Of a stretch of DNA of 64,000 bases, positions 33,114 to 37,627 are shown piece after piece; the first letter of the stretch is position 1, and every line of letters begins with the position of its first letter. Position numbers and translations under genes: made by a program. This DNA is from a virus. The notes under the pieces were generated by a model. That model worked only from the letters and a program-made list of their open reading frames with translations. It had not been told where the DNA came from and did not search any database. The stretch lies in the IMG/VR virus record IMGVR_UViG_3300042352_001346, positions 16,909 to 80,908 of that record; one strand, given 5' to 3'.

Positions 33114-34190
33114 ATGAATAATAAATTATTTTTAACTGATTTTTCTTTTGAAGAAAGTGAAATTGTTGTAACTCCTGTTAATTTTGATTTAACATGTTCT
33201 TATGGTTTAGGAACGGCTAAAGGTCCAAATTCTTTAATAAAAGAATCAGTTCAAATTGATAATCACTTCCTTAATAGGAAACATAATTCAGTTGAAGAAC
33301 CTGCTAAATTCTTTTTAAATAAAGGAGAAATTATTAATGAAATTGCTAAAGCTAATTCATCTTTACGCAAAAGTGTTAATTTATATTGGGATATGGTAGA
33401 TGAAACTTCTAAAGGAGTTGAAGAAACTGACCAAATAAAAGAACGTAAAAAATTTATTATTAATAGTGTAAATCAATTGCAATCAAATATATTTACTATT
33501 ACAAATTTAATTACAGAAAATGTATTAGAAAATAATAAAATACCTTGTATAATTGGAGGAGACCATTCAATAATTGAAGGTGCTTTATTTGCTATTGATG
33601 AACAATATAAAGATAATTATAATATTTTACAAATTGATGCTCATTGTGATTTAAGAATAGGAGGATATGAAGGATTTGAAAAAAGTCATGCTTCAATTAT
33701 GGCAAATATTCTTAGTAATAATATTAATGTAAAATCTTTGGTACAAGTTGGTATTAGAGATTTTTCTAAAAATGAATATAATTTAACTTCAATAACTCCT
33801 AGACAAGAATTTACAAATAAATATTCACCTACACCTATTTATAAATTTTTAGATGAATATATAGCAGAAGCTGATTATTCATTTAATGGTGGTGGGTATT
33901 TACATAATATTGTTGAAAAAATAGCTTCTGTATTTAATGTAAATAAATGTAAGAATATTTATTTAACATTAGATGTTGATGGTTTAATTCCTTCTCTTTG
34001 TTCCAATACAGGTACACCTGTACCAGGTGGTTTAGATTTTAATAAAGTATTGTTTTTAATTAAAAAATTAAAAGAATGGGGTTTTAACTTTATTGGTTTT
34101 GATATAGTTGAAATTGGAAATGATAAATTTGATGGTAATGTAGCAAGTCGTTTATTGCATCAAATTGGTAATATAATTACAAAATATTAA
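33114..34190 (+). CDS. speB: Agmatinase / ureohydrolase family enzyme
   Basis: GTAKGP, GGDHS, DAHCD, SHAS, VGIRD, DVDGL, TGTPVPGG, DIVE. Confidence 0.85.
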   Translation: MNNKLFLTDFSFEESEIVVTPVNFDLTCSYGLGTAKGPNSLIKESVQIDNHFLNRKHNSVEEPAKFFLNKGEIINEIAKANSSLRKSVNLYWDMVDETSKGVEETDQIKERKKFIINSVNQLQSNIFTITNLITENVLENNKIPCIIGGDHSIIEGALFAIDEQYKDNYNILQIDAHCDLRIGGYEGFEKSHASIMANILSNNINVKSLVQVGIRDFSKNEYNLTSITPRQEFTNKYSPTPIYKFLDEYIAEADYSFNGGGYLHNIVEKIASVFNVNKCKNIYLTLDVDGLIPSLCSNTGTPVPGGLDFNKVLFLIKKLKEWGFNFIGFDIVEIGNDKFDGNVASRLLHQIGNIITKY

Positions 34191-34201
34191 AAATAAATTT
34201 T

Positions 34202-35224
34202 ATGATTATAATTAATGAAAAAAATGGTTTAGCTAAAATACAAAGTATATCAAATTTTATAGAAAAATATATGTTGCATTTTAATGGTGCAAATATGGTT
34301 GCTTCTGCAAAATCATTGAAAAAACATTTAGATGGTGGTGGTAAATTAATTATTACATTAGCAGGTGCATTTTCTACAGGTGAATGTGGTAAATTATTAG
34401 CCCAATTAATTAAAGAAGATAAAGTACATGCAATTTCATGTACAGGTGCTAATATTGAAGAAGATGTTTTTCGTTTATTAGGACAAAGTCATTATGGATT
34501 TAATTTAAAATATAATGATTTAACACCTCAACAAGAACAAGAGATACTTGATAATGATGTTAATCGTGTTACAGATACAATTATACCTGAAAAACATGTA
34601 ATTGATATTCTTTATAAAGGTCTTGATGAAGTTTGGTTTGGAGAGTATGAGCGTAGAAAAGCTAAAGGTAAAATGTGGCATGAATATTTTTATGAATTAT
34701 TTAGTAATAATTATATTCAAGAAAATTTAGATAAAGATGCAGTATTAGAAGATAGTTGGTTATATCAAGCTGCACTTAAAAATTTACCTTTATGTGTACC
34801 TGGAAATTGTGATAGTACAATGGGTAATGTATTTGCTCAACTTGTAATGGAAGAAGATATTGAAAGTTGGATAATTAAACATGATAGTGAATATATGGTT
34901 AGAATGGCTAATTGGTATATTGAATGTTGTAATAATGGTCAAAAATTAGCTATGTTAACTTTAGGTGGTGGTATATCAGCTGATTTTCCACAAACTATTA
35001 GTCCTTTTGTTGTAAAAGATTTAAATCATCCAAATGGTGCTGTTTGGTCACATATGACAGTAGTAACAATGGATATGTCTGTAACTGCAGGAGGTTTTAG
35101 TGGTTGTGCATTAAATGAAAAAATAACATGGGCTAAATTAGGTGTTGATTCAGATAAATTTTTAATCAATAGTGATTTTAGTATTGTATTTCCTTTAATT
35201 GCAGCATATTTATTGGAATTATAA
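34202..35224 (+). CDS. Deoxyhypusine-synthase-like protein (probable homospermidine/aminobutyl transferase)
   Basis: TLAGAFSTGE, SCTGANIEED, NRVTD, GGGI..DF, GGFSG, NEKITWAK with the catalytic Lys. Confidence 0.85.
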   Translation: MIIINEKNGLAKIQSISNFIEKYMLHFNGANMVASAKSLKKHLDGGGKLIITLAGAFSTGECGKLLAQLIKEDKVHAISCTGANIEEDVFRLLGQSHYGFNLKYNDLTPQQEQEILDNDVNRVTDTIIPEKHVIDILYKGLDEVWFGEYERRKAKGKMWHEYFYELFSNNYIQENLDKDAVLEDSWLYQAALKNLPLCVPGNCDSTMGNVFAQLVMEEDIESWIIKHDSEYMVRMANWYIECCNNGQKLAMLTLGGGISADFPQTISPFVVKDLNHPNGAVWSHMTVVTMDMSVTAGGFSGCALNEKITWAKLGVDSDKFLINSDFSIVFPLIAAYLLEL

Positions 35225-35239
35225 ATAATTTAAAAGAGA

Positions 35240-35271
35240 TTTGGAAGTTTTAAAAAAGGTTTTTATTTTTG
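35240..35271 (+). promoter_or_regulatory. Bacteroidota-type promoter
   Basis: TTTG (35240) + 20 nt + TAttTTTG (35264). Confidence 0.6.
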
Positions 35272-35296
35272 TATAAGAAAATTAAATATTAATAAA

Positions 35297-36268: not shown

Positions 36269-36370
36269 CAGAGAAGAAACTGCCATGATTAGTGTTTTTT
36301 TAACCTACTTGGCACTTAAGAAAAACTTACAACCAGTTTTATAGCTAGTTGTTTAAAATTTAAATTTATT

Positions 36371-37123
36371 ATGTCTTATTCAATAGAACATTTCGTAAGA
36401 ACAATAGTTGAACCTGCAAAACGTAAAGGTAAAAAATATCTATCAGAAGAATTTTTTTACCGCAATCCCAATAGACCGCAAAAAATAAATTCCAATTATT
36501 TTTATGCACCATCAGATGGTATTATAATTGGAATGAAAGAAGTAATGCTTAAAGATAGTATTTGTGAAATAAAGGGAGAAGCATATACTTTAGATGATGC
36601 AATGGGTGGAAGATTATCTGATGAAGATTATGGTTTTCGTTCTAAAGATAAATTTTTAGTTGTTGAAGTATTTTTAACGATGTATCATGTGCATTATACT
36701 CGTGTACCTTATGGTGGTATTATTAATACAGAATATTTACCTCCTATTTTAACTCAAAATCTTCCTATGTTAAGTATGGAAAATGACTTATTAAAAGGAA
36801 TTGTAAATATGAATAATGCTGATTATTTATTTAATAATTATAGAGCATTTCAATCAATTTATAATCCAAAATTTCAAATTAATTATTTTGTATTAAATAT
36901 AGCTGATTATGATGTTAATGCTATAATTTCTCATCATCAAGACGGGGATTTAATTGGACAAAATGATATACTTGGTGCTATGCAATATGGTTCGCAAGTA
37001 ACTTTAATAGTTCCAAAACCTAAAAAATATGATGATTATGATTTAATATTTAATTCTAATCTTAAAGTTGGTGATTGTATTGAAGGTGGATTAGATTATT
37101 TAATTGAATTTATAGATAAATAA
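36371..37123 (+). CDS. Phosphatidylserine-decarboxylase-fold pyruvoyl-dependent decarboxylase, lacking a membrane anchor
   Basis: FFYRNPNR, APSDG, FLTMYHVHYTRVPYGG, YGSQV autocleavage site. Confidence 0.75.
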   Translation: MSYSIEHFVRTIVEPAKRKGKKYLSEEFFYRNPNRPQKINSNYFYAPSDGIIIGMKEVMLKDSICEIKGEAYTLDDAMGGRLSDEDYGFRSKDKFLVVEVFLTMYHVHYTRVPYGGIINTEYLPPILTQNLPMLSMENDLLKGIVNMNNADYLFNNYRAFQSIYNPKFQINYFVLNIADYDVNAIISHHQDGDLIGQNDILGAMQYGSQVTLIVPKPKKYDDYDLIFNSNLKVGDCIEGGLDYLIEFIDK

Positions 37124-37172
37124 AAAATTTTTTGGTATTATAATTTTTTTTAACTTAACAAAAACATGTATT

Positions 37173-37568
37173 ATGTTACTAGTAGCAACACGTTTGGACG
37201 TATCTCCACTTATTCCAGCAGACCATAAGAAAAAAATTGGTTTGTTTGCAGATGAATTAATTCCTGCAGGTACTAAAATTTGGGAATTTACAAAAGGTAT
37301 TGATAAAGAAGTATCAGAAACCAATGTAAATAAATTGCCTAAATTGCAAAAAGATTTTGCAAATAGTCAATATCCATGGACAGAAAAGTATTATCTTATT
37401 TATGGAGATAATACAAGATTTATTAACCATTCAGAAGAACCAAATGTTGGTGAAGAAGGTGATTACCTTGTAGCCTTAAAAGATATTCAAGTTGGAGAAG
37501 AACTTGTATCTGATTATAGAACATTTGAAGAAAATTTTGAAGAATTTAAAGCAGAATATTTTAATTAA
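37173..37568 (+). CDS. SET-domain methyltransferase
   Basis: GLFA..IPAGT.IW, RFINHSEEPN, ALKDI..GEEL.SDY. Confidence 0.85.
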   Translation: MLLVATRLDVSPLIPADHKKKIGLFADELIPAGTKIWEFTKGIDKEVSETNVNKLPKLQKDFANSQYPWTEKYYLIYGDNTRFINHSEEPNVGEEGDYLVALKDIQVGEELVSDYRTFEENFEEFKAEYFN

Positions 37569-37586
37569 TATTTATTGTTGTATTTT

Positions 37587-37627
37587 AAGCAACAAGAATG
37601 TATTTATTGCATTCTTGTTGCTTTTTT
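37587..37627 (+). terminator. Intrinsic terminator closing the pentein-PSD-SET unit
   Basis: AAGCAACAAGAATG-loop-CATTCTTGTTGCTT followed by a T run. Confidence 0.75.

Follow-up and report, generated by a model that had tools for sequence, protein, structure and literature searches.

A virus-encoded pair of proposed SpeY and ureohydrolase genes beside a widespread pentein and decarboxylase cassette that may convert arginine to a diamine

We analysed a 64,000-nucleotide stretch of viral DNA (the window), which is the final 64 kb of the 80,908-bp IMG/VR virus record IMGVR_UViG_3300042352_001346 and has a G+C content of 21-28%. An earlier reading, made from the sequence alone, had described in it a cluster of five consecutive genes with intact catalytic motifs, lying between primase and nucleotide genes and closed by a strong terminator at 37587. 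The five open reading frames (ORFs) were confirmed at their coordinates, as were their Pfam families, their conserved residues, the flanking genes and the terminator hairpin. The layout of the cluster is as follows (PSD, phosphatidylserine decarboxylase; G44G, diagmatine):

33114..34190, + strand: agmatinase-family ureohydrolase, 358 aa, PF00491 (Arginase) 5.9e-40; proposed diagmatine (G44G) ureohydrolase and partner of SpeY
34202..35224, + strand: DHS-family protein, 340 aa, PF01916 (DS) 1.9e-33; proposed SpeY (diagmatine synthase)
35297..36268, + strand: stand-alone ArgZ/AgrE-like pentein, 323 aa, DDAH_eukar 3.3e-5; proposed arginine dihydrolase (arginine to ornithine, CO2 and 2 NH3)
36371..37123, + strand: predicted soluble PSD-fold pyruvoyl-type decarboxylase, 250 aa, PF02666 (PS_Dcarbxylase) 1.6e-16; proposed decarboxylase of ornithine, or else of arginine
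37173..37568, + strand: minimal SET-domain protein, 131 aa, PF00856 1.9e-13; a neighbour and not a conserved member of the cluster
37587..37623, + strand: intrinsic-terminator-like hairpin closing the unit, with a 16-bp stem, a 5-nt loop and a T run

The cluster is flanked on the 5′ side by genes for a DnaB-like helicase and a primase and by a 157-aa ORF, and on the 3′ side by a dUTPase/DCD-like gene followed by a GMP-reductase/IMPDH-like gene. Terminator-like sites numbered five in 32500-39300, compared with 1.1 ± 1.1 in shuffled sequence. None of the five proteins reached an NCBIfam equivalog cut-off, and all are therefore divergent members of their families; the Pfam match of the pentein to DDAH_eukar is a narrow one (23.7 bits, cut-off 23). 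A blastn search against phage records gave no match. The absence of a canonical arginine or ornithine decarboxylase, also claimed earlier for the window, extends to the whole 80,908-bp record (64% complete according to CheckV), in which PF02784, PF01276, PF02675 and PF01862 gave no match at E ≤ 0.01.

The pentein gene and the PSD-like gene constitute a conserved two-gene cassette that is widespread without SpeY. In a search with a 19-sequence alignment, at least 220 IMG/VR stretches were found to encode the pentein, and the viral linkage counts refer to the best 80 of these 220. The PSD-like gene starts no more than 60 nt from the end of the pentein gene in 75 of the 80 loci, and 61-1000 nt from it in three. 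In one further locus (the L003 contig) it lies 5.2 kb away and a second pentein gene directly precedes it; in the remaining one no PSD-like gene was seen, the contig ending 112 nt after the pentein gene. Among isolate phages, tblastn detected the pentein in 47 records (Campylobacter 39, Bacteroides 6, Ralstonia 1 and Xanthomonas 1) and the PSD-like protein in 45, namely all 39 Campylobacter and all 6 Bacteroides records of this set. The two genes adjoin in the Bacteroides phages, whereas in the Campylobacter phages approximately 40-90 kb separates them. A single-protein scan of viral contigs with the PSD-like protein gave no match. Most viral loci are T4-like and carry terminase, portal, prohead protease, gp23, the pair and PhoH. 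In the marine T4-like loci (L007-L083, for example L018 at 8242-11607), the pair is inserted in the interval from gp23, the major capsid gene, to phoH, a known site of auxiliary metabolic genes (AMGs).

The bacterial form of the cassette was assessed with one genome per species from 185,579 bacterial and archaeal species. This set contained 144 pentein stretches, and the counts refer to the best 80 of them. Here the order is PSD-like gene and then pentein gene in 71 of the 80 loci, and four of the nine misses are at contig ends. In 53 loci an exporter gene in the same orientation follows within 3.5 kb (MATE in 32, ABC in 21; median offset 35 nt). It was found elsewhere within 6 kb in 14 loci, was absent in 10 and had no room in three. 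A looser single-linkage clustering of ORFs gave an exporter in 74 of the 80 loci; the stricter count is the one relied on. Units of PSD-like gene, pentein gene and MATE or ABC exporter (loci L084-L163; examples are L161 at 7064-10292, L150 at 7221-10757 and L122 at 3572-12801) occur in Actinomycetota, Verrucomicrobiota, Gemmatimonadota, Campylobacterota and Pseudomonadota, with Xenorhabdus and Ca. Glomeribacter among the carriers. In Hoeflea, genes for an APAH-like (acetylpolyamine-amidohydrolase-like) protein, AIH, the PSD-like protein, the pentein, a spermidine-synthase-like protein and an ABC exporter are clustered, and AIH is encoded near the cassette in 6 of the 80 bacterial loci. Both the Hoeflea context and the AIH neighbours fit a function of the cassette in polyamine metabolism. 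No description of the pentein-PSD pair was found in the literature, with most subscription journals outside the search.

The two upstream genes form a pair of their own. The ureohydrolase gene ends 11 nt upstream of the DHS-like start, and in all three viral contigs that have a DHS-like gene (the window, L003/L005 and L004) a ureohydrolase gene is adjacent, directly upstream. Residues H151, D175, H177, D179, D287, D289 and E333 of the ureohydrolase are invariant in nine aligned sequences, and we take them to be the metal ligands. The protein scores 110 bits against TIGR01230, under the cut-off of 174, and its closest named cellular kin are Bacteroidota agmatinase-family proteins (35-39% identity). 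We know of no sequence rule for ureohydrolase specificity that would tell G44G from agmatine or arginine. In the DHS-like protein, K312 within EKI(T/S)W(A/G)K is invariant in nine aligned sequences and is presumably the catalytic lysine, as in DHS. The best NCBIfam model for this protein is 'homospermidine biosynthesis protein', but the scores for both NF001980 (92.2 bits vs 450) and NF002699 (74.1 bits vs 500) are under the cut-off. Its closest named kin are found in Flavobacteriia and other Bacteroidota (43-47% identity) and are not archaeal or eukaryotic; four more phage-like DHS proteins (P0040-P0043) are 48-66% identical to it. Among 50,697 phage records, tblastn gave six weak matches to the ureohydrolase, none covering 80% of the protein, and none to the DHS-like protein, for which a single-protein scan of metagenome contigs likewise gave no match. 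As a cellular control we used 80 metagenomic SpeY loci (830 kb, 41-45% identity), in 25 of which an agmatinase-like gene lies within 500 nt of SpeY.

According to the accessible part of a recent biochemical study (Li et al., J Biol Chem 2026, PMC13625781), diverse bacterial SpeY enzymes, among them the one from the flavobacterium Winogradskyella algicola, make G44G from two agmatines and do not use putrescine. SpeY-linked SpeB homologues hydrolyse G44G and not agmatine, speY and its hydrolase are horizontally transferred as a unit, and arginine decarboxylase (ADC) is the usual third partner in cellular speY clusters. The earlier suggestion that a DHS homologue and an agmatinase-family enzyme cooperate in making homospermidine fits this work. 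The step from putrescine to homospermidine that came with it is unlikely, because SpeY couples agmatines and not putrescine, and the linked SpeB homologues act on G44G. We regard it as probable, from homology and linkage, that this first module leads from agmatine through G44G to homospermidine. The pair would have been taken from a Bacteroidota-type host, and SpeY would join two agmatines, supplied by the arginine decarboxylase of the host, to N1,N9-bis(guanidino)homospermidine (G44G). The agmatinase-like enzyme would then strip off both guanidino groups as urea, leaving homospermidine. The pair of speY and ureohydrolase genes is new for viruses. In its accessible part, the 2023 survey of viral polyamine genes (Li et al., PNAS 2023, PMC9992855) reports no SpeY homologue in virus or phage genomes and one phage agmatinase only, a stated gap that the phage SpeY module fills; the word 'phage' is absent from the accessible text of PMC13625781.

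Our data indicate that the cluster is composed of two modules of different origin and distribution and a bystander, and that it is not the single five-gene pathway proposed from the sequence alone. The pentein-PSD pair is widespread without SpeY, and neither pentein nor PSD-like protein is encoded in any of the 80 cellular SpeY loci. All four enzyme genes were found together in three viral contigs only, the window, L004 and L003/L005, which have a replication-gene backbone in common. Their order is agmatinase, DHS, pentein and PSD in the window. In L004, a 130-kb contig, it is QueD, QueE, FolE, agmatinase, DHS, pentein, PSD, AIH-like and MazG. In L003/L005 (43 kb) the order is dUTPase, agmatinase, DHS, pentein-a, primase, a 161-aa ORF, QueD and QueE, followed by AIH-like, FolE, pentein-b, PSD, DCD-like and SpeD-like. 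Since the four genes are joined in three phages and in none of the 80 cellular SpeY loci, the joining is a trait of this phage lineage and not an inherited bacterial operon. The conserved-neighbourhood check recommended with the five-gene proposal was run and was positive for four of the five genes. The SET gene shares the transcription unit with the two modules but is unrelated to them and not a pathway member. It had no match in any of the 83 loci searched, the 80 viral cassette loci included, and a homologue was found in one of the 50,697 phage records. In L003 and L004 other genes occupy its place, and its atlas neighbours are ordinary bacterial and phage SET clusters of 120-136 aa. DNA modification or amidination products, which had also been considered, have no support in this record.

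Some further features of the two related contigs were noted. L003 encodes at 6952-16799 an agmatinase-like protein, SpeY, two penteins, a divergent AIH-like pentein (PAD_porph 1.8e-22), the PSD-like protein and a 133-aa SpeD-like protein, which is the richest guanidino/polyamine gene set seen here in one phage. Genes for QueD, QueE and FolE are interleaved with the polyamine genes in L003 (11394-14223) and L004 (5824-7874 and 13809-14744), and L004 also encodes DUF5591. From these genes, the L003 and L004 phages probably carry a 7-deazaguanine base in their DNA.

The pentein proved to be ArgZ-like, as had been read from its motifs. Its AF2 model (pLDDT 88.8) has ArgZ (6juy) as the best Foldseek match (E 2.4e-21, TM 0.90 by target, rmsd 2.3-2.6 Å). 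After ArgZ/AgrE (20-22% identity) follow DDAH at approximately 1e-12 and then the amidinotransferases SxtG, AGAT and HsvA at approximately 1e-10. Sequence matches in the PDB are AgrE (3.8e-19) and ArgZ (6.7e-16). The scores against NF052232 Arg_dihydro (1.5e-23, 83.4 bits, cut-off 450) and NF052231 (82.7 bits, cut-off 1025) are below cut-off, and the protein matches phrog_12759, a family of unknown function, at 7.5e-33. Because of these scores and its single domain of 323 aa, it is filed as ArgZ-like and not as ArgZ. Residues N44, D91, N97, R121, E147, R167, H196, D198 and C308 are invariant in 19 sequences, and the first eight of these correspond to N22, D65, N71, R90, E118, R139, H168 and D170 of AgrE in a HMMER alignment counted by hand. 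A structure of the ArgZ N71S mutant traps a reaction intermediate, according to its PDB title. In a tree of 158 penteins cut to 77 at 80% identity, the SpeY-linked penteins group apart from the others, in a clade with long branches (SH-aLRT 99). The rows L091, L094 and L123, on a branch of length 5.6, are probably mis-extracted ORFs, and nothing was drawn from them.

The PSD-like family is compact: its 19-member profile matches 140 of 1.84 billion 50%-identity representatives at E ≤ 1e-30. Residues D49, H108 and G207-S208 are invariant in the 19 sequences; in the PSD family, Gly-Ser is the site of self-cleavage and His and Asp are catalytic (in part after the review PMC12904898). The window protein matches phrog_12670 (function unknown) at 4e-30, and the family profile matches the beta chain of E. 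coli PSD at 3.7e-10. However, the best PSD equivalog score is 52.7 bits against a cut-off of 183, and all PSD equivalog models are far under their cut-offs. None of the 19 family members has a hydrophobic segment (top 19-residue Kyte-Doolittle mean 0.69-1.31, threshold 1.6), which argues for a soluble pyruvoyl-type decarboxylase with a non-lipid substrate and against a PSD. The AF2 model (pLDDT 83.8) was matched by Foldseek to E. coli PSD (3e-6), PsiD (3.9e-4) and Ao-ADC1 (5.8e-3), all with TM values of 0.43-0.47, which are lowered because the solved chains are cleaved subunits. Two soluble amino-acid decarboxylases with the PSD fold are thus among the fold matches, PsiD acting on tryptophan and Ao-ADC1 on arginine. 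The latter, from Aspergillus oryzae, is a pyruvoyl-dependent arginine decarboxylase of the PF02666 family with the structure 9JER, as described in the accessible part of PMC12904898. The idea that a PSD-fold enzyme supplies the missing decarboxylase gains solved precedents from these two enzymes; by E value the model scores closer to E. coli PSD than to Ao-ADC1, so specificity is not transferable. As a separate observation, the 737-aa protein P0286 is matched by the PSD-like profile in two stretches, the second at 586-728, and seems to be interrupted by some hundreds of residues, perhaps an intein or an inserted endonuclease. In Campylobacter phage records, a homing endonuclease is annotated next to the PSD-like gene or overlapping it.

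From gene presence, folds, conserved catalytic residues, linkage and distribution, from which every substrate and product is proposed here, we tentatively favour a composite of two modules: a SpeY-ureohydrolase module for homospermidine and a cassette leading from arginine through ornithine to putrescine, with SET unrelated. Taken by itself, the assignment of the cassette is possible rather than probable. The ArgZ-like pentein would yield L-ornithine by hydrolysing the guanidino group of L-arginine. The PSD-fold enzyme would self-cleave at G207-S208, form a pyruvoyl group and decarboxylate ornithine to putrescine. Arginine would in this way reach putrescine in two steps, without urea and without agmatine, and in bacteria the product would be exported by the MATE or ABC pump encoded beside the pair. 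This route is favoured because the chemistry of the pentein stays as in its closest characterised relatives and because two tightly linked genes become a linear pathway. It also needs no third enzyme, which fits the pair carriers Ca. Glomeribacter and a Caulobacteraceae metagenome-assembled genome. These two genomes gave no match for AAT-fold decarboxylase, PvlArgDC, SpeD, the arginase family, AIH, spermidine synthase or NspC, and for SpeA a weak match below cut-off in each; for the proposed route this is only suggestive.

Several points weigh against the ornithine route. The PSD-fold enzyme known to act on one of the two candidate substrates acts on arginine, and to our knowledge there is no precedent for a PSD-fold ornithine decarboxylase (ODC). 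For residues R121 and R167 of the pentein, binding of the alpha-carboxylate of the substrate is presumed by analogy with DDAH. The separate long-branched clade of SpeY-linked penteins and the presence of two penteins in L003 suggest that the window pentein may have altered specificity. A fusion of PSD-like protein and pentein (Rosetta-stone) was also looked for, but none of the three long proteins compared (P0295, P0289 and P0286) has a pentein part. Among 17 operon-bearing genomes, SpeA is present in four (three over the cut-off, one split across contigs) and AAT-fold decarboxylase in nine. By these counts the pair is not a simple replacement, and the mixed patterns of SpeA, AIH and AAT-fold enzymes in these genomes do not settle between ADC and ODC. 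Putrescine from the cassette would moreover not feed SpeY, which requires agmatine, so that the joining of the two modules is left with a shared theme only. Finally, cellular speY clusters carry an ADC, and the PSD-like protein is the sole decarboxylase in the window's record and within 10 kb in L004, which favours arginine as its substrate.

It is this last point that leads to the main rival, in which the PSD-fold enzyme is an arginine decarboxylase feeding SpeY. The four genes would then make up a single branched pathway, in which arginine passes through agmatine and G44G to homospermidine, with agmatine or G44G as the substrate of the pentein and putrescine, homospermidine or a carbamoyl intermediate as its product. 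We judge it unlikely, if the strongest of the alternatives. Ao-ADC1, a solved ADC of the PSD family, is among the fold matches, and the accessible part of PMC13625781 gives both the requirement of SpeY for agmatine and ADC as third partner in cellular speY clusters. The PSD-like protein is the only decarboxylase within 10 kb in L004, as in the whole of the window's record. The modules are joined in all three SpeY phage contigs, as opposed to none of the 80 cellular SpeY loci, and AIH-like genes stand beside the cassette in L003, L004, L117 and L158. On the other hand, the pentein keeps every ArgZ/AgrE residue that could be mapped, among them the two arginines that we presume to hold a carboxylate, and neither agmatine nor G44G has one. 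An agmatine-consuming pentein would also compete with SpeY, and by E value the PSD-like model scores nearer to E. coli PSD (3e-6) than to Ao-ADC1 (5.8e-3).

It seems improbable that the cassette makes some other exported small amine, such as N-carbamoylputrescine made from citrulline by a deiminase and a decarboxylase or a decarboxylated product of amidinotransfer, with a use in phages other than bulk polyamine supply. The exporter linked in 53 of the 80 bacterial loci would be in keeping with this, as would the amidinotransferases SxtG, AGAT and HsvA among the fold matches (approximately 1e-10), the label amidinotransferase given to the pentein gene in Campylobacter phage records, and the assignment of both proteins to PHROG families of unknown function. 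The hydrolases ArgZ and AgrE, however, match approximately 10 orders of magnitude better than the transferases, and N97, the equivalent of ArgZ N71, at which the N71S structure traps the intermediate as its PDB title states, is invariant. The context genes that can be named are polyamine genes.

A role of the enzymes in hypermodification of DNA or nucleotides, for example by a polyamine-like side chain on 7-deazaguanine or thymidine, is very improbable. QueD, QueE and FolE are interleaved in the two related contigs, DUF5591 is encoded in L004, and the window cluster lies between replication and nucleotide-metabolism genes. But homologues of QueD, QueE, FolE, AIH-like, MazG and DUF5591 were not found in the window's record (tblastn, E ≤ 1e-3), the major capsid gene and phoH flank the cassette in most marine loci, and the bacterial cassette adjoins an exporter. 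Least credible of all is a true PSD that alters the host membrane lipid, the other genes being unrelated: the PF02666 match, E. coli PSD as best fold match and the reading of viral psd as lipid metabolism in phage records and in the accessible part of an ocean AMG catalogue (PMC11360552) are set against the lack of a hydrophobic segment in the 19 family members, the best PSD equivalog score of 52.7 bits vs 183, and the near-obligate link to an arginine-type pentein in phages and bacteria.

Compared with the pathway of SpeY and diagmatine ureohydrolase in the accessible part of PMC13625781, the phage pair is alike in that a DHS-family gene adjoins an agmatinase-family gene, the catalytic lysine and metal ligands are kept, and the closest kin are Bacteroidota, the phylum of the assayed Winogradskyella algicola SpeY and SpeB. 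It differs in being phage-encoded and divergent (43-47% and 35-39% identity, scores below the NCBIfam cut-offs). In place of an ADC of the four canonical families tested it is accompanied by the pentein-PSD pair, which none of the 80 cellular SpeY loci has. The cyanobacterial ArgZ (Sll1336) and AgrE (Alr4995) have the same fold as the pentein and, as far as mapped, the same active-site residues. They are proteins of approximately 700 aa with a second domain, whereas the phage pentein is a stand-alone protein of 323 aa with 20-22% identity, is unaligned by sequence after residue 207 and is paired with a decarboxylase, in bacteria also with an exporter. Ao-ADC1 (PDB 9JER) and PsiD of psilocybin synthesis (PDB 8X4Q) have in common with the PSD-like protein the PF02666 domain, the Gly-Ser self-cleavage site, the catalytic histidine, the absence of a membrane anchor and a context of amino-acid metabolism. 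Both are, however, fungal proteins of approximately 440-480 aa, whereas the PSD-like family is bacterial and viral with approximately 240 aa; their chains gave no HMMER match from this family, and the fold match is weaker than that of E. coli PSD. Viral polyamine genes as surveyed in the accessible part of PMC9992855 are comparable as auxiliary genes that raise the supply of diamines or triamines in infection. There, homospermidine is a viral product in chloroviruses and a Ralstonia phage by way of HSS, and the accessible part lists neither the pentein nor the PSD-fold enzyme.

Present annotation labels the cassette genes 'phosphatidylserine decarboxylase' and 'amidinotransferase' or DDAH. The repeated recruitment of enzymes has a textbook example in polyamine synthesis. 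We regard as evenly balanced the broader proposal that the ArgZ-like pentein and the PSD-fold enzyme of 240 aa represent an unrecognised, widespread route from arginine to a diamine, with a new prokaryotic and viral class of pyruvoyl ornithine or arginine decarboxylase, export of the product in bacteria, and a connection here to the first virus-encoded SpeY module. If true, a further decarboxylase fold and a urea-free and agmatine-free two-step route to putrescine would have been misread by present annotation, and the bacterial exporter link would point to a secreted amine. As the pair is found in therapeutic-candidate Campylobacter phages, gut Bacteroides phages and abundant marine T4-like phages, it is relevant to the ways in which phages provide for the packaging of DNA and for translation.

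Two further links of the locus to base modification were considered and rejected. One was that pentein, PSD-like, DCD-like and GMP-reductase-like proteins serve the replacement of dG by dI in Campylobacter phages; the GMP-reductase-like protein occurs in the six Bacteroides phages and is not listed for Campylobacter, and PMC13091555 mentions neither gene. The other was a 7-deazaguanine link: L003 and L004 have Que genes around the cluster, but the window's record has none.

Of the neighbouring genes, the 157-aa ORF after the primase gene (32620-33093) has no Pfam or PHROG match and adjoins the primase gene also in L003 and L004 (37-40% identity). A mechanically called ORF at 37575-38153 begins at TTG and overlaps the terminator hairpin; as the hairpin lies inside it, position 37647 (ATG, residue M25) is the likelier start codon of the DCD-like gene. 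The stretch 37647-39117, 3′ of the cluster, encodes the dUTPase/DCD-like and the GMP-reductase/IMPDH-like protein (phrog_9582). Together, a phage GMP-reductase homologue and an adjoining dNTP-pyrophosphatase-like gene could reshape the pools of purine nucleotides. In Bacteroides phage DAC16 the same pair of nucleotide genes follows the pentein-PSD pair, and its reductase-like protein is 41% identical.

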